From positions 18,757 to 82,756 of the forward strand of contig CAMBIR010000003.1 of assembly GCA_945867665.1 (NCBI GenBank): 64,000 bases of DNA. The letters are read 5' to 3'. The DNA comes from an uncultured Bacillota bacterium (GTDB lineage Bacteria; Bacillota_I; Bacilli_A; RF39; UBA660). Shown piece after piece: positions 3,392 through 15,904 of the stretch (the stretch's first letter is position 1; each line of letters begins with the position of its first letter). The notes under the pieces are model-generated. The model made no database searches. It saw only the letters and a list, made by a program, of their open reading frames with translations, and was not told the origin of the DNA. The translations under genes were made by a program, and so were the position numbers.

Positions 3392-4780
3392 TTACTTCGT
3401 ACTAACTTTCAAAGGACTTTCCTTTGTCCCCATTCCACTATATTTGAGCCCAGACTTCAGAACCACTATTGGGCGAAGGGAATTGCCGTTACTACCCGTG
3501 GCGAAACCTGAACTGTTATAGGAATACAGGATGCTGTTGGCATACGACCCCGAAGTGCCCAAGCCCCGTCCGCGCCACTTATAGTTAGTCGAAGAGGAAT
3601 AATAATAGTATCGTGATGCCATCCAATAATCAGAACTGCTACTCCCTGGTTTAGTGGCTACTCGTGTCCCTAAAACTGTATTAACTAAATCATAATCCGT
3701 AGTATATAATTCATCTCCTCCACCTTGACTCTCAACAGTACTACTTCCTGTTGAACTTGTCCATGGTGCTGGATTTGTAAATTTGGAAGTATCCGTAATA
3801 TATTCTGTCTGACCATTATACCCAAAATGCCTAGATGAAACAGTATAAGTACTATTTTCATATTGACTGGCAAGAACATTTAAATATCCAACAAAATTTT
3901 GATACCCTGTTTGTCCTTTAAAATAAACGTCTGTACTAGAGACATGTTCACTAATCATCTCTACTGTTCCATCATCATTAATACGAATTACTCGCCACAA
4001 ATTTAACTCTTTTGGATAAATCGTTTGACTAGATGTATATCCTGTCATTGTTGTATCCGTTGAATAAGAAGATTTGGTAGGCGTTAAAGAAACATAATCT
4101 CCTAGACTAATCATTCCACTAACATTCTCCGCTAAAGCATCAATCGCACATTGAACATCAGAACAATTAAGCCCTGTTTTCGAATTATCATAACTAAATC
4201 GACTAGCAATAACATCATTCGCCACCAATGCCCCATTATCAATACTATCAGTTGTACTATAAGCAGCAATCCCATCTATTTTTAATCTGGCACTAAAACT
4301 TTTATTGATTTCAGTATTTTGAACAGCCTCAGATATCCATACCCGAACATCAATATCTACACTTGTTTTGGGCAATAAAATAATATCACTTTTAATAATA
4401 TTATTACTACAATCACTAAGTTGTTTAGGATCTAGTTTCCCCACCTTTGTCATAATAAATTGATGATTGATTTCATCTGTAGCCGTTGTAGGTTCTAGTA
4501 TCACATTAAATTTATAAGCAACCGTTCCTGAATTTTTAACCGTTATTCGATAAGGAGTAATTGTAGGGATTCTTTGATTAGAAATTGGCCTAGATACATC
4601 TAAAGTAACATTACCCGCATCTTCTACAGTAACCACTAAACTTCCCAATTTATAAACATTAGCTTCCTGATCAACATCTGTAGAATTAAAAAGAGAATAG
4701 GTACTACCAATCATCAAAATAGATACTAATATAATAGAAATAACACTGGTAACAATTAATCTTTTCTTAGAATCCATCAC
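3392..4780 (-). CDS. DGR target protein 3, remote from the cassette; N-terminal signal/anchor and C-terminal variable domain
   Basis: 462 aa. The N-terminus 'KKRLIVTSVISIILVSILMIG' is hydrophobic. The C-terminal 230 aa are paralogous to ORFs 11915..12859 and 14939..15904. The 3' part (3471..3605) aligns to the TR at 13941..14075 with substitutions mostly at TR adenines. Confidence 0.8.
   Translation of the reverse strand: MMDSKKRLIVTSVISIILVSILMIGSTYSLFNSTDVDQEANVYKLGSLVVTVEDAGNVTLDVSRPISNQRIPTITPYRITVKNSGTVAYKFNVILEPTTATDEINHQFIMTKVGKLDPKQLSDCSNNIIKSDIILLPKTSVDIDVRVWISEAVQNTEINKSFSARLKIDGIAAYSTTDSIDNGALVANDVIASRFSYDNSKTGLNCSDVQCAIDALAENVSGMISLGDYVSLTPTKSSYSTDTTMTGYTSSQTIYPKELNLWRVIRINDDGTVEMISEHVSSTDVYFKGQTGYQNFVGYLNVLASQYENSTYTVSSRHFGYNGQTEYITDTSKFTNPAPWTSSTGSSTVESQGGGDELYTTDYDLVNTVLGTRVATKPGSSSSDYWMASRYYYYSSSTNYKWRGRGLGTSGSYANSILYSYNSSGFATGSNGNSLRPIVVLKSGLKYSGMGTKESPLKVSTK
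3471..3605 (-). other. DGR variable region VR3
   Basis: About 135 bp homologous to the TR. The pattern of substitutions differs from VR1 and VR2. The flanking IMH-like block 'gagcccagacttcagaaccactat' is shared with VR1 and VR2. Confidence 0.75.
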
Positions 4781-4787
4781 ACACCTC

Positions 4788-5507
4788 CTACTTACTAAAA
4801 TAATATAAACTTCCCATCAATATGCCCATTACCAAAATTAAAAGTAAAAATGTTTGAGCATCAATCATTCCTTCATTATTTTTTCTTACTAAAGTCTTTG
4901 GCTTTATTTGACTCACTTCTCTCTTTTGTCCTCTTTCCAATTGACTCACCACACGTTCAACTAAAACATTGAGTGGTTGATTTTCTAAATCAAGTTCCTT
5001 ATCTTGAAATAAAGTACTGATTTGTCTTTCAATCTCTAGATAAGAAACATTTACAAAAGAATTAGCCCCATCCTGTAAATAAGTTCTAGTTATTCCATCT
5101 TGACTCTCTGAAATCAAATTCGTTTTAAAATAATTTTCAAGAAAAACTTGTTCTTTTCGTTTCCGAATAATTTTTGAATCATTTGAAAAAGAAAAACTAC
5201 TAACCAATTCTTGACTTCTCTTCTCTTCTTCATCATTAAGTGGTACAAATTGAAGAGAAAGTTCCTTGATATTCTTAAGCCTCTTAATTGTATCTTTATA
5301 AGCCTTTAAATAAAAAGTTTTATAATTAGGATTATTCAAAATACTACTAGAAATAACTAAAGTTGCCTCTCCACTATCTTTTCTTAGAGAAACTTCAAAA
5401 TCAACCCCAGAAAAAAAACCACGATACAAAATAATATCCTCATCTTCTAGTATAATCTCCATCTTACCACTCCTCATTATCTTAATATAAGAGTACCATA
5501 AATACAA
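4788..5507 (-). CDS. Hypothetical protein with a C-terminal TM anchor
   Basis: 239 aa ORF with hydrophobic C-terminus 'FLLLILVMGILMGSLYYF'. It ends 7 bp upstream of target3 on the same strand. The true start may be the internal 'MEIILEDED'. Confidence 0.4.
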   Translation of the reverse strand: MYLWYSYIKIMRSGKMEIILEDEDIILYRGFFSGVDFEVSLRKDSGEATLVISSSILNNPNYKTFYLKAYKDTIKRLKNIKELSLQFVPLNDEEEKRSQELVSSFSFSNDSKIIRKRKEQVFLENYFKTNLISESQDGITRTYLQDGANSFVNVSYLEIERQISTLFQDKELDLENQPLNVLVERVVSQLERGQKREVSQIKPKTLVRKNNEGMIDAQTFLLLILVMGILMGSLYYFSK

Positions 5508-7620: not shown

Positions 7621-7764
7621 AATTGAAATGTTAAATAAATATTTAAAGTTATTATAGATGTTTTACTTTTCCAATTAAGATATTAGTTACTTAGCAGAGT
7701 TATCCTTGCTTTTTTTTCAAGATAAAGATATACTTAAATAAAGAAAATAAGGAGGAAAGAAGTA

Positions 7765-9177
7765 ATGATATTTTTAAATACACTAGATGCCTGCTCTAAT
7801 TATGAAATCTTAAGAATCGTTCGCGTAATCATGAATGTTTTTCGCTTAATCTGTTTCATCGCCCCAATTCTATTAATCATAATGCTCTCCATTGATTTTG
7901 GAAAAACAGTAATGTCTGGAGGAAATATTGAAGATAATAAAGTTCTATCTTTATTCATTAAAAGAATTATAATGTGTATGGCAATTTTTTTAGTCCCAAT
8001 TTTTATTACTGTCGCGATGAATATAACAGGACTTAGTACAGCCAAACAATATAAAGATTGCCTAAAAAATTATGAAAATGCAAACAATTATAAAGATAAT
8101 ACCATAACAAATAAAGGAAATTCAAGTAATAATGGAAACAATAATAACAAAGGAAATTCAAATGGAAGTGAAGGCTCGAATTCATCTTCTATCAAAAAAA
8201 TTACTTTAAACAAAACCAATGCCACAATTACTGAATATTCTGATAATGTTTCTAGTCGAGGAAAAAATTATACCATTAACAAAACAAAATTATCCATTAA
8301 AGAATCAGCTGCAAAAGGAAAAATAAAATGGAGCATCACTGACGGAAAGACTGTCGCCAAAGTAGATAACAAAGGAAAAGTAACCGCTCTAAGTGGAGGA
8401 ACAGCTACAGTAAGAGCAGAACTAAAAGATAATTCAAAAGTCTATGCCGAAGCTAAAATAACTGTGGCTCATGGTCTTTATGAAAATGTAAAGACGACTC
8501 AAAATGTTACTGTAAAAGATATCTATACCGGAAAGTCGATTACATTAACGAAAGGAAAAAAAGTAGTTCTCCTTGGAGAATTAAAATGCAAACGACAAGA
8601 TTATAAAAACCAAACATTTAATATTAGAATAGATAAAAATACAGTTGCTAAAATTTCAGGTAAATATCTAAAATTTGTAAGTTATTATGTTGATGATGGA
8701 TATACAAATGAAGTATACGAAAATTTTATTAATGAACAAGGATTCACCAGCAAAACAAACTACTTATTTTGGGTAAATGTTGGTACCCAAAGATTAATGT
8801 TATTTAAAAAAGAAAATTCCAAATGGAAAATCATAGAAAACTTTAAAACCTCAACAGGAGACTCTGAAGGAAAAAACACAAATGATAGCGGTGGCTCAAC
8901 AATAACTAAATTTGACCTAGAAGTACAAGATTTTAATAGTGAATCATCTGTTGGAAGAGCAATTCATGTTCGCTACGAAACAACCAAAAAAAATCATGGC
9001 AACACAATGCATGTAGGCAGCTTACCGAAAAATACTGATGGCGGTAATTCTTCTGAAAATCAACCATCTTCACATGGATGTCCCCATTTATCAAAAAGTT
9101 TTCGAGATAAACTTTATAATACTTATAATGAAAAAAGTAAAAATAAATTAATCAATTCTAAAGTAATTTATTATTAA
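7765..9177 (+). CDS. Membrane-anchored protein with Asn/Gly/Ser-rich linker, Big_2 Ig-like domain and C-terminal L,D-transpeptidase-like domain
   Basis: N-terminal TMs. Low-complexity stretch 'NSSNNGNNNNKGNSNGSEGSNSSS'. Big_2-like segment '...KTVAKVDNKGKVTALSGGTATVRAEL'. C-terminal 'H…SHGCPHLS' resembles the YkuD catalytic His/Cys motif. Confidence 0.55.
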   Translation: MIFLNTLDACSNYEILRIVRVIMNVFRLICFIAPILLIIMLSIDFGKTVMSGGNIEDNKVLSLFIKRIIMCMAIFLVPIFITVAMNITGLSTAKQYKDCLKNYENANNYKDNTITNKGNSSNNGNNNNKGNSNGSEGSNSSSIKKITLNKTNATITEYSDNVSSRGKNYTINKTKLSIKESAAKGKIKWSITDGKTVAKVDNKGKVTALSGGTATVRAELKDNSKVYAEAKITVAHGLYENVKTTQNVTVKDIYTGKSITLTKGKKVVLLGELKCKRQDYKNQTFNIRIDKNTVAKISGKYLKFVSYYVDDGYTNEVYENFINEQGFTSKTNYLFWVNVGTQRLMLFKKENSKWKIIENFKTSTGDSEGKNTNDSGGSTITKFDLEVQDFNSESSVGRAIHVRYETTKKNHGNTMHVGSLPKNTDGGNSSENQPSSHGCPHLSKSFRDKLYNTYNEKSKNKLINSKVIYY

Positions 9178-11880: not shown

Positions 11881-11892
11881 AATAAAATATAT

Positions 11893-12530
11893 GAGATATC
11901 CTCCACTTCCTACTTTACTTTATCTCCATCGGATAGTCCTCTGTACCTACTCCCTCATATTGGAGCCCAGACTTCAGAACCACTATCGGGCGAAGAGAGC
12001 TGCTGCTACCGCCCGTGTTGAAATTCGAACTATAATAGCTATACAGGTTGTAGTTGCTAATTGACCCAGAAGCGAGCACCTTCCGTCCGCCCCAGCGATA
12101 GTCAGTCGAGGAGGAATAATTATAGTATCGTGATGCTATCCAATAAGAAGCACCACTACCCCCTGGTTTAGCGGCTACTCTTGTCCCTAAAACTGTATTG
12201 ATTAAATTATAATCTGTAGTGTATAAAGTATCTCCTCCACCTTGACTCTCAACAGTACTACTTCCAGTTGAACTTGTCCATGGTGCTGGATTTGTAAATT
12301 TGGAAGTATCGGTAATATATTCCGTTTGCCCATTATATCCAAAATATCGAGAACCTTTAGTATAAGCACTATTTTCATACTGACTTGCAAGAACATTTAA
12401 GTATCCAACTAGGTTTTGATACCCTGTTTGTCCTCTAAAATAAACCGCTACACTAGAGACATGTTCACTAATCATCTCTACTGTTCCATCATCATTTAAT
12501 TTAATCACTCGCCATAAATTTAATTCTTGT
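11893..12530. repeat. Direct repeat copy A, about 640 bp and 100% identical to 14917..15554 (3' portion of target gene including VR and IMH)
   Basis: Read base by base, with identity confirmed at several blocks and divergence beginning upstream of about 12530. Confidence 0.75.
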
Positions 12531-12859
12531 GGATTAATCGTTTGCGTACTAGTATATCCAGTTTTAGAAGCATCCGTTGTATAGCTAGACTTGGTTGGTG
12601 TCATCTTGACATAGTCTCCTAAAGCAAGAGTATTTTTTTTCTTTAAACAAACATATCCATCTGGACATGACTTACCATATAATTCATCCAAAGCATCTTG
12701 AACATTAGTTGAACTAAGACCACTTTTACTATTATCATAAGTTAAATCTACTCCATTACCAACGTATGTCGTTGCTGCATATACTCCCGTTACCGATAAG
12801 AATATTCCAATTACTAAACCAACTAGTATCTTATAATTATAACTTTTCTTTTTCTTCAT
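11915..12859 (-). CDS. DGR target protein 1, secreted or anchored, with C-terminal variable domain
   Basis: 314 aa. Signal peptide 'MKKKKSYNYKILVGLVIGIFLSVTGVYA'. The C-terminal 230 aa are identical to ORF 14939..15904. The 3' VR (11988..12122) matches the TR except mainly at TR-adenine positions. Confidence 0.85.
   Translation of the reverse strand: MKKKKSYNYKILVGLVIGIFLSVTGVYAATTYVGNGVDLTYDNSKSGLSSTNVQDALDELYGKSCPDGYVCLKKKNTLALGDYVKMTPTKSSYTTDASKTGYTSTQTINPQELNLWRVIKLNDDGTVEMISEHVSSVAVYFRGQTGYQNLVGYLNVLASQYENSAYTKGSRYFGYNGQTEYITDTSKFTNPAPWTSSTGSSTVESQGGGDTLYTTDYNLINTVLGTRVAAKPGGSGASYWIASRYYNYSSSTDYRWGGRKVLASGSISNYNLYSYYSSNFNTGGSSSSLRPIVVLKSGLQYEGVGTEDYPMEIK
11988..12122 (-). other. DGR variable region VR1
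   Basis: Aligns with the TR at 13941..14075. On the plus strand TR 'gagagTTgTTgTTaTTgTTcgtg' corresponds to VR 'gagagCTgCTgCTaCCgCCcgtg', so the substitutions fall on coding-strand adenines. Residues encoded there: TR N/N/N/N/N give VR D/R/G/K/L and so on. Confidence 0.8.
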
Positions 12860-13805
12860 TTCTAATCATTCCTTTATTTAGATTTTTATAATTAATATAA
12901 CTTGCTAAATAACTATTTAATTTTATCTTTCCAATTTCATATAAATACTTTTTATATTTTAATTTTCTTCTCTTGTCTCTATATTTAGAATTTCTATTAT
13001 CTTTATCTCTTCCTAGAAAAATAATATTATTGGTATTCTTATAAATTCTAGTTTTATTATTTAACTCTAATCTTTCTTTTCTTAAAAATTCTTTTATCTT
13101 ATCTAAACAATACTTTAAATATTGTTTATCTTGATGAAACAAAATAAAATCATCTTGATATCTTACATAATATTTTATCTTTAACTCTTCTTTAATATAA
13201 TGATCTAAATCATTTAAATAAAATATTCCTAATATTTGACTACTCATAAATCCTATACTAAGTGTAGTATCACTATCTAATATTTTATCTATTATCATTA
13301 AAGCATCTTTATCTTTTATTTTTCTTTTCAATTTATTCTTTAATACTCTAATATCAATACTAGCAAAATAAGAATGAATATCACATTTTAAAAGATAATA
13401 AGTACCATATTTTCTCTCCATCATATTACGATACTGATAATATAATTTTAGAGCATAAGATGTTCCTTTATTTGTTCTAGAAGCACAATTTGCATCAATT
13501 AAACAAGGAATTAAAGCATCATATAAAATATATCGACTCACCAAATGATTCACTAATTTATCATACATACTTTGACTAACAATTCTTCTTTTCTTTGGAT
13601 CGTATATGTAAAAAACATGAAACTTTCCTACTTCATAAGTTTTATTTTTTAAATCATGATATACCCGACTAATATAAATTGCTTTAAAATTCTTAAATTG
13701 TTGTACTCTATTCTTATTTTTTGTATTTCTACATATCTCATCAAAACATCTCTCTATATTTTCAAATTTATATATATTTTGATATAAATTATTTACTCTT
13801 TTCAT
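12837..13805 (-). CDS. DGR reverse transcriptase
   Basis: 322 aa. RT motifs 'IGFMSSQILGIFYLNDLDHY' (DGR-type [IVL]GxxxSQ in place of QGxxxSP) and 'YVRYQDDFILF' (YxDD box). The size is typical for DGR RTs. It overlaps the start of target1 by 23 nt. Confidence 0.9.
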   Translation of the reverse strand: MKRVNNLYQNIYKFENIERCFDEICRNTKNKNRVQQFKNFKAIYISRVYHDLKNKTYEVGKFHVFYIYDPKKRRIVSQSMYDKLVNHLVSRYILYDALIPCLIDANCASRTNKGTSYALKLYYQYRNMMERKYGTYYLLKCDIHSYFASIDIRVLKNKLKRKIKDKDALMIIDKILDSDTTLSIGFMSSQILGIFYLNDLDHYIKEELKIKYYVRYQDDFILFHQDKQYLKYCLDKIKEFLRKERLELNNKTRIYKNTNNIIFLGRDKDNRNSKYRDKRRKLKYKKYLYEIGKIKLNSYLASYINYKNLNKGMIRNEEKEKL

Positions 13806-13929
13806 ATATCCCCTTTCATTTTCATTACTAACAGATATATTTTTTATATTGTTTATAGAATAATCTATTGGACTTAGTCTATTTCTTCATTATCTCTAAT
13901 ATAAGTCTTTCTTATATCACCTCAGTTTG
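13806..13929 (-). ncRNA. DGR TR–RT spacer, presumed structured part of the template RNA
   Basis: A 124-nt non-coding gap between the TR 3' end and the RT start codon. In characterised DGRs this spacer is part of the RNA that primes cDNA synthesis. The assignment here is inferred from position alone. Confidence 0.4.
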
Positions 13930-14095
13930 AAGAAGTTCCTGGGCGAAGAGAGTTGTTGTTATTGTTCGTGTTGAAACTTGAACTATTATAGTTATACAGG
14001 TTGTTGTTGCTAGTCGACCCAGAAGTGTTCACATTCCGTCCGTTCCAGTTATAGTTAGTCGAAGAGGAATAATCATAACAACATCTCTTTCCAAA
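13930..14095 (-). repeat. DGR template repeat (TR)
   Basis: Non-coding copy of the target 3' region lying between avd and the RT. Its residual reading frame is Asn-rich, 'STNYNWNGRNVNTSGSTSNNNLYNYNSSSFNTNNNNNSLRP', with 13 or more AAC codons at positions that vary in VR1, VR2 and VR3. The 3'-end block 'cttcgcccagg' (IMH*) differs from the VR-side IMH. Confidence 0.85.
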
Positions 14096-14099
14096 CCAA

Positions 14100-14444
14100 C
14101 TAAGCCCGAGATGACTTTCGCCATCCAATAACATACTTTAATAAATAATCCAAATTCTCCCCAAATTTTAAATATCTTTTGGCATTAATAATGTGTTTAT
14201 CGTAACAAACATTAACCAAATAATCTAAATATTTAATATAAGAAATAATTTTATCTTGAATATCGATTCTTTTATTGATATCAAATGTTGTATTTGCTTC
14301 ATAAGCAATCTTTAACATTTGATAAGAAGTAAACATAATTTCTCTTTTTATTTCTATTTCTTTATGAGGAAAATTTGTTAAATACTGATCAAAACTATCA
14401 ATTAATCTCTTAATCAATTCTGTTATATAAAATTTATCTTTCAT
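14100..14444 (-). CDS. avd: DGR accessory variability determinant (Avd; four-helix-bundle, 23S rRNA IVS protein family)
   Basis: 114 aa. 'LIDSFDQYLTNFPHKEIEIKREIMFTSYQMLKIAYEAN … YLDYLVNVCYDK' fits the Avd consensus (FPK.E.…R.…). It lies immediately upstream of the TR. Confidence 0.7.
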   Translation of the reverse strand: MKDKFYITELIKRLIDSFDQYLTNFPHKEIEIKREIMFTSYQMLKIAYEANTTFDINKRIDIQDKIISYIKYLDYLVNVCYDKHIINAKRYLKFGENLDYLLKYVIGWRKSSRA

Positions 14445-14883
14445 ATAATAACTTCTCTACTTCTTCAATTTTATCATCATGCTTTAAAAGATAGACCTTA
14501 ATTCTATCAATTCTATTTAATTTATCTAAATAATCATTTGCTTTAGAAGAAACCTCTTTATACTTATTTTTCTTTTTATAATTCATCTTATCCATCTCTT
14601 CATAATTATGATTCTTATCAATCGAAATATAATTAATATTTCTACTCTCTAAATTTGAAATAACTCTATTATAAGAAACCAAAGGAAAACCACAATTCTT
14701 ATCTCCACTAGATAATATCTTAATTTTATATTGAAATAAATAAGAAATGATATTGGCATCATCATTATAACATTCATAAAAAGTACCAATTTTTAATAAT
14801 ACTACATATTCTGGAAATAATTCTTTTAAATTATTTGCCATATTTACTACTGCCATATAAACCTTCTTTCTTTTTTTAACCAA
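14434..14883 (-). CDS. MutS domain-I-like (mismatch-recognition domain) small protein; putative DGR accessory factor
   Basis: 149 aa. 'FPEYVVLLKIGTFYECYNDDANI…KNCGFPLVSYNRVISNLESRNINYISI' aligns to MutS domain I ('PILLFYRMGDFYELFYDDA…[23 protein letters not shown]') and keeps the Phe-x-Glu mismatch-contact motif ('FYE'). It overlaps the avd start by 11 nt. Confidence 0.6.
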   Translation of the reverse strand: MVKKRKKVYMAVVNMANNLKELFPEYVVLLKIGTFYECYNDDANIISYLFQYKIKILSSGDKNCGFPLVSYNRVISNLESRNINYISIDKNHNYEEMDKMNYKKKNKYKEVSSKANDYLDKLNRIDRIKVYLLKHDDKIEEVEKLLYER

Positions 14884-14916
14884 AGCCCATCTCAGGAACG
14901 ACCTTAGGCCGTTCTT

Positions 14917-15554
14917 GAGATATCCTCCACTTCCTACTTTACTTTATCTCCATCGGATAGTCCTCTGTACCTACTCCCTCATATTGGAGCCCAGACTTCA
15001 GAACCACTATCGGGCGAAGAGAGCTGCTGCTACCGCCCGTGTTGAAATTCGAACTATAATAGCTATACAGGTTGTAGTTGCTAATTGACCCAGAAGCGAG
15101 CACCTTCCGTCCGCCCCAGCGATAGTCAGTCGAGGAGGAATAATTATAGTATCGTGATGCTATCCAATAAGAAGCACCACTACCCCCTGGTTTAGCGGCT
15201 ACTCTTGTCCCTAAAACTGTATTGATTAAATTATAATCTGTAGTGTATAAAGTATCTCCTCCACCTTGACTCTCAACAGTACTACTTCCAGTTGAACTTG
15301 TCCATGGTGCTGGATTTGTAAATTTGGAAGTATCGGTAATATATTCCGTTTGCCCATTATATCCAAAATATCGAGAACCTTTAGTATAAGCACTATTTTC
15401 ATACTGACTTGCAAGAACATTTAAGTATCCAACTAGGTTTTGATACCCTGTTTGTCCTCTAAAATAAACCGCTACACTAGAGACATGTTCACTAATCATC
15501 TCTACTGTTCCATCATCATTTAATTTAATCACTCGCCATAAATTTAATTCTTGT
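14917..15554. repeat. Direct repeat copy B (identical to 11893..12530)
   Basis: See copy A. Confidence 0.75.
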
Positions 15555-15904
15555 GGTTTAATTGTTTGCGTACTCGTATATCCTGTTTTAGAAGTATCTG
15601 TTGTATAGCTAGACTTGGTAGGTGTCATCTTAACATAGTCTCCTAAAGCAAGGGTACTTTTCTTTTGTAAACAAACATAACCATCAGGGCAACTAGTACC
15701 ATCTCCATATACCTTCTTATATTTATCTGAAAGTTCATCAACTGCTCCTTGTACATCAGCACTAGATAAGTTACTATTTTCATTATCATAAAAAACATCT
15801 TCTGCTCTATATTTATTTACTGCCCATACACTAATGATAGGAATTAATATTCCTATCATTAAACCAATGAATAATTTATAATTCTTATTTTTTAATATTC
15901 GCAT
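14939..15904 (-). CDS. DGR target protein 2, secreted or anchored, upstream of the cassette
   Basis: 321 aa. N-terminal 'MRILKNKNYKLFIGLMIGILIPIISVWA'. The C-terminal domain and VR are identical to target1. Confidence 0.85.
   Translation of the reverse strand: MRILKNKNYKLFIGLMIGILIPIISVWAVNKYRAEDVFYDNENSNLSSADVQGAVDELSDKYKKVYGDGTSCPDGYVCLQKKSTLALGDYVKMTPTKSSYTTDTSKTGYTSTQTIKPQELNLWRVIKLNDDGTVEMISEHVSSVAVYFRGQTGYQNLVGYLNVLASQYENSAYTKGSRYFGYNGQTEYITDTSKFTNPAPWTSSTGSSTVESQGGGDTLYTTDYNLINTVLGTRVAAKPGGSGASYWIASRYYNYSSSTDYRWGGRKVLASGSISNYNLYSYYSSNFNTGGSSSSLRPIVVLKSGLQYEGVGTEDYPMEIK
15012..15146 (-). other. DGR variable region VR2 (identical to VR1)
   Basis: Offset by 3024 bp from VR1 and the same sequence throughout. 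Confidence 0.8.

Follow-up and report, generated by a model that had tools for sequence, protein, structure and literature searches.

Gene content and organization of the locus

The window, that is, the whole 64,000-nt stretch of DNA analysed here, has a G+C content of about 30% and a GC skew that is strongly negative throughout. The low G+C content, together with the tRNAs and housekeeping genes present, indicates that the DNA is chromosomal and derived from a low-G+C bacterium. A repeat search of the window detected a 137-nt unit in four copies, at 3471, 11988, 13941, and 15012. The copy at 13941 was designated as the template repeat (TR) and the other three as variable regions (VRs). The genes related to the diversity-generating retroelement (DGR) are all located on the minus strand, in the order target gene 2, a small MutS-like gene (MSL), avd, TR, a structured spacer RNA, the reverse transcriptase (RT) gene, and target gene 1; target gene 3 is remote.

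The TR (13940..14077, minus strand) is 138 nt long, contains 48 adenines, and lies between avd and the RT gene, outside the annotated genes. In the list of open reading frames (ORFs) it sits in an open frame of 70 codons. Its reading frame, which is the same as that of the targets, contains 13 AAC and 3 AAT codons, in agreement with the first-pass annotation, which had counted at least 13 AAC codons. The TR is conserved in related loci, and that of one strain differs by 2 nt only. A spacer of 134 nt separates the end of the TR from the start of the RT gene.

The VRs are also on the minus strand. VR1 (11987..12124) is in target gene 1, 24 codons ahead of the stop codon. VR2 (15011..15148) is in target gene 2 and has every base in common with VR1 in the window, and VR3 (3470..3607), the most drifted copy, is in target gene 3. 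Each VR ends approximately 70 nt (23–25 codons) ahead of the stop codon of its target, and the target ORFs encode 314–462 aa. The arrangement observed here, with a TR beside the RT gene and outside the targets and a VR at the 3′ end of each target, is the layout of a DGR. No further targets besides these three were found within the window by tblastn.

Target gene 1 (11915..12859, minus strand) encodes a 314-aa protein whose N-terminus is a hydrophobic signal or anchor, and its start overlaps the RT stop codon by 23 nt. Its paralogue, target gene 2 (14939..15904, minus strand; 321 aa), is located upstream of MSL. Target gene 3 (3392..4780, minus strand; 462 aa) lies about 9.2 kb from the TR, and its product shares 69% identity with target 1 over residues 39–313 (tblastn). 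All three targets have a hydrophobic N-terminal segment, and no Pfam domain was found in them. Their C-terminal module of about 240 aa belongs to a large family, with 2,940 cluster representatives at E ≤ 1e-3. Among 50 diverse family members, 16 carried a type IV pilin-like N-terminal methylation motif and others contained fn3, Big_2, or Listeria-Bacteroides repeats. These N-termini and repeats in the relatives point to display of the target family on the cell surface. Searches for the fold of the targets, with a C-type lectin fold as the candidate for display of the VR, gave no match in Pfam, an NCBIfam scan, or a PDB profile search. A profile search with trimmed distant target homologues returned close relatives again and the alignment stayed shallow. 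Two AlphaFold models of the targets were of low confidence (mean pLDDT 52.7 and 54.8), and their Foldseek matches were meaningless.

The RT gene (12837..13805, minus strand) encodes 322 aa and matched Pfam RVT_1 (E 1.5e-12). The best solved relative of the RT was 8ub7_A (E 8.8e-21, residues 2–302), which we take to be the RT of Bordetella phage BPP-1 (bRT), judging from its size of 328 aa and the cryo-EM study. The catalytic and signature residues were present. Residues 184–190 are IGFMSSQ, a stretch that is invariant in 18 relatives and fits the motif [I/V/L]GxxxSQ, which replaces QGxxxSP in DGR RTs (PMC7826257). R73 and I184 align with R74 and I181 of bRT, which promote adenine mutagenesis (PMC7826257). 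By its motif and its best solved relative, the RT belongs to the DGR clade.

Two small genes precede the TR on the same strand. The gene adjacent to the TR (14100..14444, minus strand) encodes a protein of 114 aa with a pI of 9.2 and overlaps the end of MSL by 11 nt. The protein matched NCBIfam NF033474 DivGenRetAVD over the full model length with 24.7 bits (E 2.3e-5), short of the curated cut-off of 80 bits. All 18 of its 18 relatives matched NF033474 only, with a best E-value of 9e-14, and all were under the cut-off. No Avd was found among PDB structures in single-sequence and profile searches. Based on its position, size, pI, and these weak and consistent matches, we treat the product as Avd-like.

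MSL (14434..14883, minus strand) encodes MutS domain I only, with 149 aa from TTG or 140 aa from the ATG at 14856. It scored 34 bits against Pfam MutS_I (cut-off 20.6), and its translation retains the GTFYE mismatch-binding motif. Wu et al. 2018 (PMC5758913) described MSL as a DGR accessory gene, and its presence defines their Architecture D. The combination of a small MutS-like gene and avd in one cassette, as observed here, places the element in this class. A scan of the cassette for promoters and terminators gave signals no higher than the shuffled expectation.

More than 2,000 proteins of the RT family are in the protein database. In a scan of genomes chosen to represent species, 80 related loci from human and animal guts were identified, nearly all in MAGs named uncultured Bacilli, Clostridia, or Tenericutes. 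MSL and Avd homologues accompanied the RT in 73 of these 80 loci. In some they lie upstream on the RT strand, which is the arrangement seen here, and in others they lie downstream on the other strand. RT-MutS_I fusions occurred among the relatives (P0053 and P0057). The four closest loci (L004, L063, L002, and L003) have the same target-MSL-Avd-TR-RT-target layout and more non-adenine mismatches between TR and VR. A phage-borne element was ruled out by the surrounding housekeeping genes and tRNAs and by the low similarity to phage RTs, none of which exceeds 35% identity.

Differences between TR and VRs at template adenines

We aligned the TR with each VR and tabulated the mismatches by TR base. 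The plus-strand alignment was ungapped, with TR GAGAGTTGTTGTTATTGTTCGTG against VR GAGAGCTGCTGCTACCGCCCGTG, and both strings were exactly those quoted in the first-pass annotation. Adenine enrichment was seen in every VR. On the coding strand, TR 14077..13941 and VR1 12124..11988 differed at 25 positions, 19 of which were TR adenines (hypergeometric p = 2.9e-6, with adenine at 47 of the 137 TR bases). Position 13940 is also a TR adenine, and when it was included (14077..13940), 20 of 26 mismatches in VR1, and the same in VR2, fell on TR adenines (p = 1.3e-6). The earlier estimate by eye, about 19 of about 24 differences on plus-strand T (coding A), is close to these counts. For VR3 the count over 14077..13940 was 20 of 31 (65%, p = 1.2e-4). 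The non-adenine mismatches numbered 6 in VR1 and 11 in VR3, and 7 of the 11 in VR3 were at third codon positions.

The adenine-site changes in VR1 were distributed 9, 9, and 1 over codon positions 1, 2, and 3, and 17 of the 20 changed codons were non-synonymous. When the mismatches of VR1 were sorted by VR base, they fell on G (15), T (4), A (3), and C (3), with no excess at adenine. The bias was significant for every VR and was gone if a VR was taken as the template; this loss indicates that the asymmetry runs from the copy at 13940–14077 to the other copies. The same spectrum, sorted by VR base, ruled out the TR as the mutated copy. The TR-to-VR direction proposed at first reading is supported by the adenine bias, by its loss when the roles are swapped, and by the DGR-type RT, Avd, and MSL neighbours.

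The bias was also observed among natural alleles. When eight VR alleles of the species were compared, variation was present in 39 of 48 TR-adenine columns and in 21 of 90 non-adenine columns (p = 5e-11). Natural target alleles vary, as expected of a DGR, at the TR-adenine positions, and A-to-G was the dominant change among those observed. A metagenome scan with the VR 3′ flank for more VR alleles of the species gave 0 matches. Target 1 has 817 homologues. In an entropy profile of 119 homologues, values above about 2.5 bits occurred mainly at codons with adenine in the TR counterpart, and a few columns outside the VR (e.g. 62, 64, 142, and 237) reached 2.5–2.8 bits. In TR/VR pairs of distant loci, mismatches fell on adenine in 21 of 21, 25 of 26, 26 of 27, and 31 of 33 cases.

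VR1 and VR2 lie in a 641-nt run that is identical between targets 1 and 2 (11892-12532 = 14916-15556), and the two VRs are 100% identical. A protein 95% identical to target 1, with differences almost all in the VR, was found in the database (P0127). It derives from ENA assembly ERZ10544616, contig NODE_54_length_124891 (L086), another public version of the 124,891-nt contig to which the window belongs. Run SRR17382105, like this assembly a candidate for the source sample, gave a 1.76-kb piece identical to the locus. Over 20,945 nt the two versions differed at 56 positions, which are the same 28 changes made in both target 1 and target 2. Each set of 28 comprises 24 changes in the VR, 1 opposite TR adenine 13940, and 3 located 30–135 nt upstream of the VR. 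We named the VR haplotype of the window A and that of the second version B; the sample contains at least two VR haplotypes. Linked SNPs gave no assignment of A and B to target 1 versus target 2, or to two subpopulations.

The same 28 changes in both copies, and nothing else, are the pattern of repeat collapse or read-based polishing, and the identity of VR1 and VR2 is probably an assembly collapse. The identity could also be biological, produced by a very recent gene conversion or duplication or by one cDNA that homed into both targets. It is present in both public versions of the contig, and gene conversion does occur in tandem paralogues with long identical tracts. However, the absence of any other difference in 20,945 nt argues against a biological origin, the short assembly L001, obtained separately, stops about 30 nt inside the repeat, and the flanking VRs differ from each other in five other loci (L088, L083, L004, L063, and L002). 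We consider a biological origin improbable. It is unsafe to treat VR1 and VR2 as two independent targets, since their identity looks like an assembly artefact. It is shown here that assembly and polishing can silently collapse or swap DGR variable regions in tandem paralogues.

Haplotype B differed from the TR at 20 positions, 18 of which were TR adenines (90%, p = 5e-8). Large surveys apply the rule that at least 75% of mismatches lie opposite TR adenines (PMC8144416). Haplotype A (20/26, 77%) and haplotype B (18/20, 90%) exceed this value, and VR3 alone (65%) is below it.

We also considered whether the repeats could be ordinary paralogous fragments, with the TR as a pseudogene remnant of a target and no part played by reverse transcription. 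The copies would then have diverged through normal mutation and gene conversion. Targets 1 and 2 are clearly paralogues, their 641-nt identical run resembles gene conversion, and the TR is in an open 70-codon frame. This explanation is nevertheless highly improbable. Normal mutation does not account for the placement of 77–90% of the differences on a single base of one partner and at codon positions 1 and 2, with an asymmetry that is lost on swapping. Moreover, in 73 of 80 loci the TR has an RT of DGR type, Avd, and MSL beside it, and the sequence directly 3′ of it is a conserved RNA structure, not a coding sequence.

The 3′ ends of the repeats and the spacer RNA

The TR and VRs share a G+C-rich invariant 3′ end of 11 nt, TCTCTTCGCCC (13941..13951, minus strand), which is the sole IMH-like element. 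The stretch recurs at 11988–11998 and 15012–15022, and at 3471–3481 with one change. A homologous (Y)CG(Y)CC is kept across the family. The next base beyond it corresponds to TR adenine 13940 and is G in VR1 and VR2 and A in VR3 and haplotype B. The c/t difference between the VRs (11987 and 3470), which the first-pass annotation placed in the IMH, is opposite this TR adenine and therefore marks a variable site outside any IMH.

The flank strings were as quoted in the first-pass annotation, ...CTTCGCCC(G/A)ATAGTGGTTCTGAAGTCTGGGCTC for the VRs and ...CTTCGCCCAGGAACTTCTTCAAAC for the TR. Past the shared end, the TR and VR flanks are unrelated, with 7 of 25 bases matching in a manual position-by-position count. 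Different species have a conserved sequence directly 3′ of their TRs, and it bears no relation to the VR flank. No conserved hairpin or cruciform was revealed 3′ of the VRs by folding of the DNA, by a scan for inverted repeats, or by folding of an alignment of eight VR flanks, although such an element had been suggested as a thing to look for. The folds of VR-flank DNA had z-scores of 0.04 and −1.2, and the alignment fold had −1.3 kcal/mol with zero covarying pairs. Because the flanks are unrelated past the 11-nt end and no conserved hairpin follows the VRs, the BPP-1-type arrangement of IMH, IMH*, and cruciform is absent, and the G+C-rich core alone has a counterpart here. Of the IMH/IMH* asymmetry described at first reading, the difference between the TR and VR flanks stands, but there is no pair with few mismatches, just the 11-nt shared end. 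The string read as IMH*-like (coding CTTCTTC) actually forms the 5′ side of P1, the first helix of the conserved spacer RNA.

The structured spacer RNA (13804..13935, minus strand) is a counterpart of the BPP-1 'Sp' and is predicted to contain helix P1 (CTTCTTC/GAAGAAA), a P2 hairpin, P3, and P4. The ribosome-binding site (Shine-Dalgarno) and ATG of the RT gene lie within the 3′ strand of P4. In distant loci, a terminator-like hairpin and about 60–100 nt are located between the spacer RNA and the RT start. A 26-locus alignment gave a common fold with compensatory changes in 23 of 30 predicted pairs, so the predicted structure is supported by covariation, independently of Rfam. The spacer RNA matched Rfam RF02921 RT-14 over the full length (model positions 1–144) with 30.8 bits, under the gathering score of 48.1 bits, and none of 12 related loci matched RF02921 at the gathering score. 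As its score is sub-threshold, the spacer RNA is a relative or analogue and not a curated RT-14 member. Like the spacer RNA described here, RT-14 is located beside an RT gene and has a four-helix layout (Weinberg et al. 2017; PMC5737381). In BPP-1 the same position is occupied by a different motif, RT-10, and other RT motifs were predicted to serve other DGRs (PMC5737381). In the BPP-1 cryo-EM study, the RNA downstream of the TR wraps the RT-Avd complex and primes cDNA synthesis, and elements similar to the BPP-1 spacer RNA were reported in 207 of 278 Avd-containing DGRs.

Activity, strain distribution, and relation to known DGRs

Haplotype B agrees with the TR at 5 of the 6 non-adenine sites where haplotype A departs from it. 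It also carries two derived bases that are specific to the TR, at 14033 (T; C in sister TRs) and at 14013 (C; A in sister TRs). Since haplotype B has these bases, it must have been written after the TR gained them. Haplotype B is a cleaner product of the TR and argues for recent retrohoming. The mismatch at 14074 is unchanged, which suggests that the 5′ junction of the replacement is between 14074 and 14063. In strain L088, which carries the cassette, the TR differs by 2 nt, and the two VRs are distinct from each other, with 19 of 23 and 21–22 of 24–25 mismatches at A. VR divergence between strains was about 11–20%, compared with 4–6% in the 463 nt just upstream. Diversification is thus real on the scale of strains.

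Other observations concern slow or past activity. The non-adenine mismatches of haplotype A (6) and VR3 (11), and the value of 65% for VR3, point to a long period without any rewriting of these copies. A strain that is about 5% diverged just upstream of the VR has a VR almost the same as haplotype A (4 differences), and a sister lineage had identical VRs in three samples despite 11 to 18 SNPs elsewhere. These are evidence that homing may be rare or conditional.

It is possible that the DGR is dormant or decaying in this lineage, in which case the adenine pattern would record past activity and ordinary mutation alone would now change the VRs. Many of the non-adenine mismatches in haplotype A and VR3 are at synonymous third positions, and the two TR bases that drifted from the sister TRs were not copied into either of these VRs. 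The nearly unchanged VR of the diverged strain and the identical VRs of the sister lineage fit dormancy as well, as do the existence of strains that have no cassette and the sister locus L063, in which MSL is apparently frameshifted and the VRs are just 64–70% identical to the TR. Against this, all four components are intact and conserved, the RT retains its catalytic and signature residues, and the structure of the spacer RNA has been kept. Haplotype B copies the present TR with 90% adenine specificity, derived bases included, and L088 carries two different VRs with most mismatches at A. On balance we regard dormancy as rather unlikely, and the complete hypermutation system is probably still active.

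In several independent assemblies of closely related cassette-less strains (L087, L089 on a 72-kb contig, and L090–L092), MSL, avd, TR, and RT are missing, and target 2 is followed by a gap of about 50–65 nt and then by target 1. The gap is identical in L087 and L089 and about 15 nt shorter in L090. The flanks in these assemblies are 96.7–98.3% identical to the window. In L082, a target 2-like gene is joined straight to the sequence downstream of target 1; this contig reflects either recombination between the two direct repeats or a chimeric assembly. One reading, which we offer only tentatively and hold to be unlikely as a whole, is that within the species group (96–98% identical flanks) the 2-kb MSL-avd-TR-RT core behaves as a clean presence/absence module, that the VR alleles of cassette-less strains are distinct and frozen, and that P4 throttles RT translation.

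Taken together, the region at 13940–14077 is very likely the TR of a chromosomal MSL-type DGR in an uncultured low-G+C gut bacterium (Bacilli), which would work as follows. The minus strand would be transcribed through MSL, avd, TR, and the structured spacer RNA. The RT and Avd would bind this RNA and copy the TR to cDNA, faithfully except opposite adenines, where any base may be inserted. The cDNA would then take the place of the 138-nt VR homologous to it, close to the 3′ end of the two flanking paralogous targets and of the one about 9 kb away, guided by the G+C-rich TCTCTTCGCCC end and upstream homology. Because the adenines occupy positions 1 and 2 of 16 AAY codons, each event would re-randomise approximately 16 to 20 residues of a protein that is secreted or anchored at the surface. 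In Bacteroides, host MutS reduces retrohoming 5- to 10-fold. MSL, a lone MutS mismatch-binding domain, could plausibly shield the mismatched cDNA:VR heteroduplex from host mismatch repair. The layout of the TR and VRs, the adenine bias, the gene content, the conserved cassette and spacer RNA structure, the hypervariable TR-adenine codons of natural alleles, and a VR allele younger than recent TR changes are direct observations of this analysis. How the spacer primes synthesis, what Avd and MSL do, and how homing proceeds are inferred by homology to the DGRs of BPP-1 and Bacteroides.

The element belongs to the already described MSL/Avd class of DGRs and does not alter the current picture of the DGR mechanism. 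Architecture D DGRs (PMC5758913) and the Bacteroides Bfr/Bth/Bun elements (bioRxiv 10.1101/2024.11.15.621889) have the same MSL-Avd-TR-RT cassette, with the VR at the 3′ end of adjacent targets. They also share adenine-specific mismatches, and in them MSL is always found with Avd. Several features set the present element apart from those systems. It resides in an uncultured gut bacterium of Bacilli type with low G+C content, and its cassette lies between two paralogous targets in tandem, with a third target at a distance. No Pfam domain is present in these targets, which are not pilins of the Bacteroides type, and the RT start codon is inside the last helix of the spacer RNA. In comparison with the BPP-1 DGR (mtd-avd-TR-brt), the RT is homologous over its full length (8ub7_A, E 8.8e-21) with the same signature and adenine-mutagenesis residues, and Avd and a G+C-rich 3′ end of TR and VR are common to both systems. 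The element differs from that of BPP-1 in that it is chromosomal, with the best phage RTs at most 35% identical, and has an extra MSL gene and three targets. Instead of an IMH/IMH* pair with few differences, the homology here simply stops; no hairpin or cruciform follows the VR, and A-to-G is dominant among the changes.

This analysis confirms that uncultured gut bacteria of a poorly known group carry a complete hypermutation system. The targets represent a large secreted or anchored family with 2,940 cluster representatives and a variable module that has no Pfam domain. If the reading of the cassette core as a module is true, the presence and absence of the cassette would be a natural on/off experiment for DGR-driven surface variation. 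Strains with and without the cassette are available for comparison. If P4 acts as proposed, RNA folding or RNP assembly on the RT start would be a built-in brake on the element and could explain rare homing.

Presence of the core among related strains

We compared window positions 12858-14924 among strains to determine the presence of the DGR core. The whole core (MSL and avd, encoding the MutS-like protein and Avd, the template repeat TR, and the RT gene) was missing from five related loci (L087, L089, L090, L091, and L092), whose flanking sequences were 96.7-98.3% identical to the window, whereas it was present in strain L088. In the core-less strains, a short junction (about 50-65 nt) lies between targets 2 and 1; it is the same in L087 and L089 and is about 15 nt shorter in L090. 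Judged from the sequences compared, the DGR core is a presence/absence polymorphism between its own targets.

Between the target 2 stop codon and the MSL start lies a 16-nt inverted repeat (14889-14921; 88% complementary, with a 1-nt loop). A related sequence (GGACAGCCTAA...) was found 3' of the target genes in the sister loci L004 and L063 and in the core-less junction. Positioned upstream of the DGR operon, the inverted repeat may serve as a terminator or a site of processing.

A different junction was observed in L082 (ENA ERZ28573772, 1893 nt), in which a target 2-like gene runs straight into the sequence that lies downstream of target 1. Sequence comparison placed the counterparts of its segments at 16294-14879 and 11902-11468 of the window. 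Its VR differed at only four positions from haplotype A, the VR sequence of the window, yet the 463 nt immediately preceding the VR showed about 5% divergence. The join arose either by deletion, through recombination between the direct repeats, or from chimeric assembly of the contig.

Variable repeats and template adenines

L086 (ENA ERZ10544616 NODE_54_length_124891) and the contig that carries the window are two public versions of one 124,891-nt contig. Over an alignment of 20,945 nt, they differed solely by the same 28 substitutions in the C-termini of both targets, and VR1 was identical to VR2 within each version. These C-termini lie in a 641-nt repeat (11892-12532 and 14916-15556 for targets 1 and 2, respectively). 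Two real VR haplotypes have probably been masked by collapse or polishing of this repeat.

Among eight VR alleles, A-to-G was by far the commonest change, accounting for 10-15 of the 15-22 changes per allele. Nine TR adenines were invariant, six of which (14076, 14073, 14070, 14052, 13995, and 13989) occupy the second position of TAT (Tyr) codons, and the invariance of these TAT adenines is probably due to purifying selection that preserves scaffold tyrosines. A 70-codon ORF starting with ATG (13922-14134, minus strand) spans the TR and reaches into the final part of avd. The simplest explanation is that this ORF is a by-product of the TR, which copies coding sequence in frame and without stops.

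Spacer RNA and the MutS-like accessory protein

The final helix of the spacer RNA and the RT start (13804-13840, minus strand) were compared with the regions upstream of RT in loci L013-L078. In this clade, the Shine-Dalgarno sequence (AAAGGGGA) and ATG of RT are located within the 3' strand of that helix, whereas in distant relatives a terminator-like hairpin with a T-run, together with about 60-100 nt, lies between the helix and the RT start. These layouts suggest that RNA folding and RT expression are coupled in different ways.

Two RT relatives (P0053 and P0057; 63-64% identical, about 448 aa) bear a fused MutS_I domain, which supports the prediction that the RT and the MutS-like accessory protein are directly linked in function. 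In the sister locus L063 (RT identity 86%), the MSL match (L063:5012-5366) consisted of two overlapping pieces in different frames, indicating an apparent frameshift. Its VRs (4743-4884 and 7686-7824) shared only 64-70% identity with the TR, and about half of the mismatches lay outside adenines. L063 may be a decaying copy.

Strand composition and the target family

GC skew was strongly negative (-0.08 to -0.48) across the window (1-64000), and G therefore exceeds C on the minus strand. The minus strand also bears most of the ORFs of at least 60 aa, as counted in the first 20 kb.

The variable module of the targets (about 240 aa) belongs to no Pfam family and is represented by 2,940 cluster representatives. 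An N-terminal methylation motif like that of type IV pilins was present in 16 of 50 diverse members of the target family, a hint that pilin-like proteins are diversified by related DGRs in gut bacteria of the Gram-positive type.
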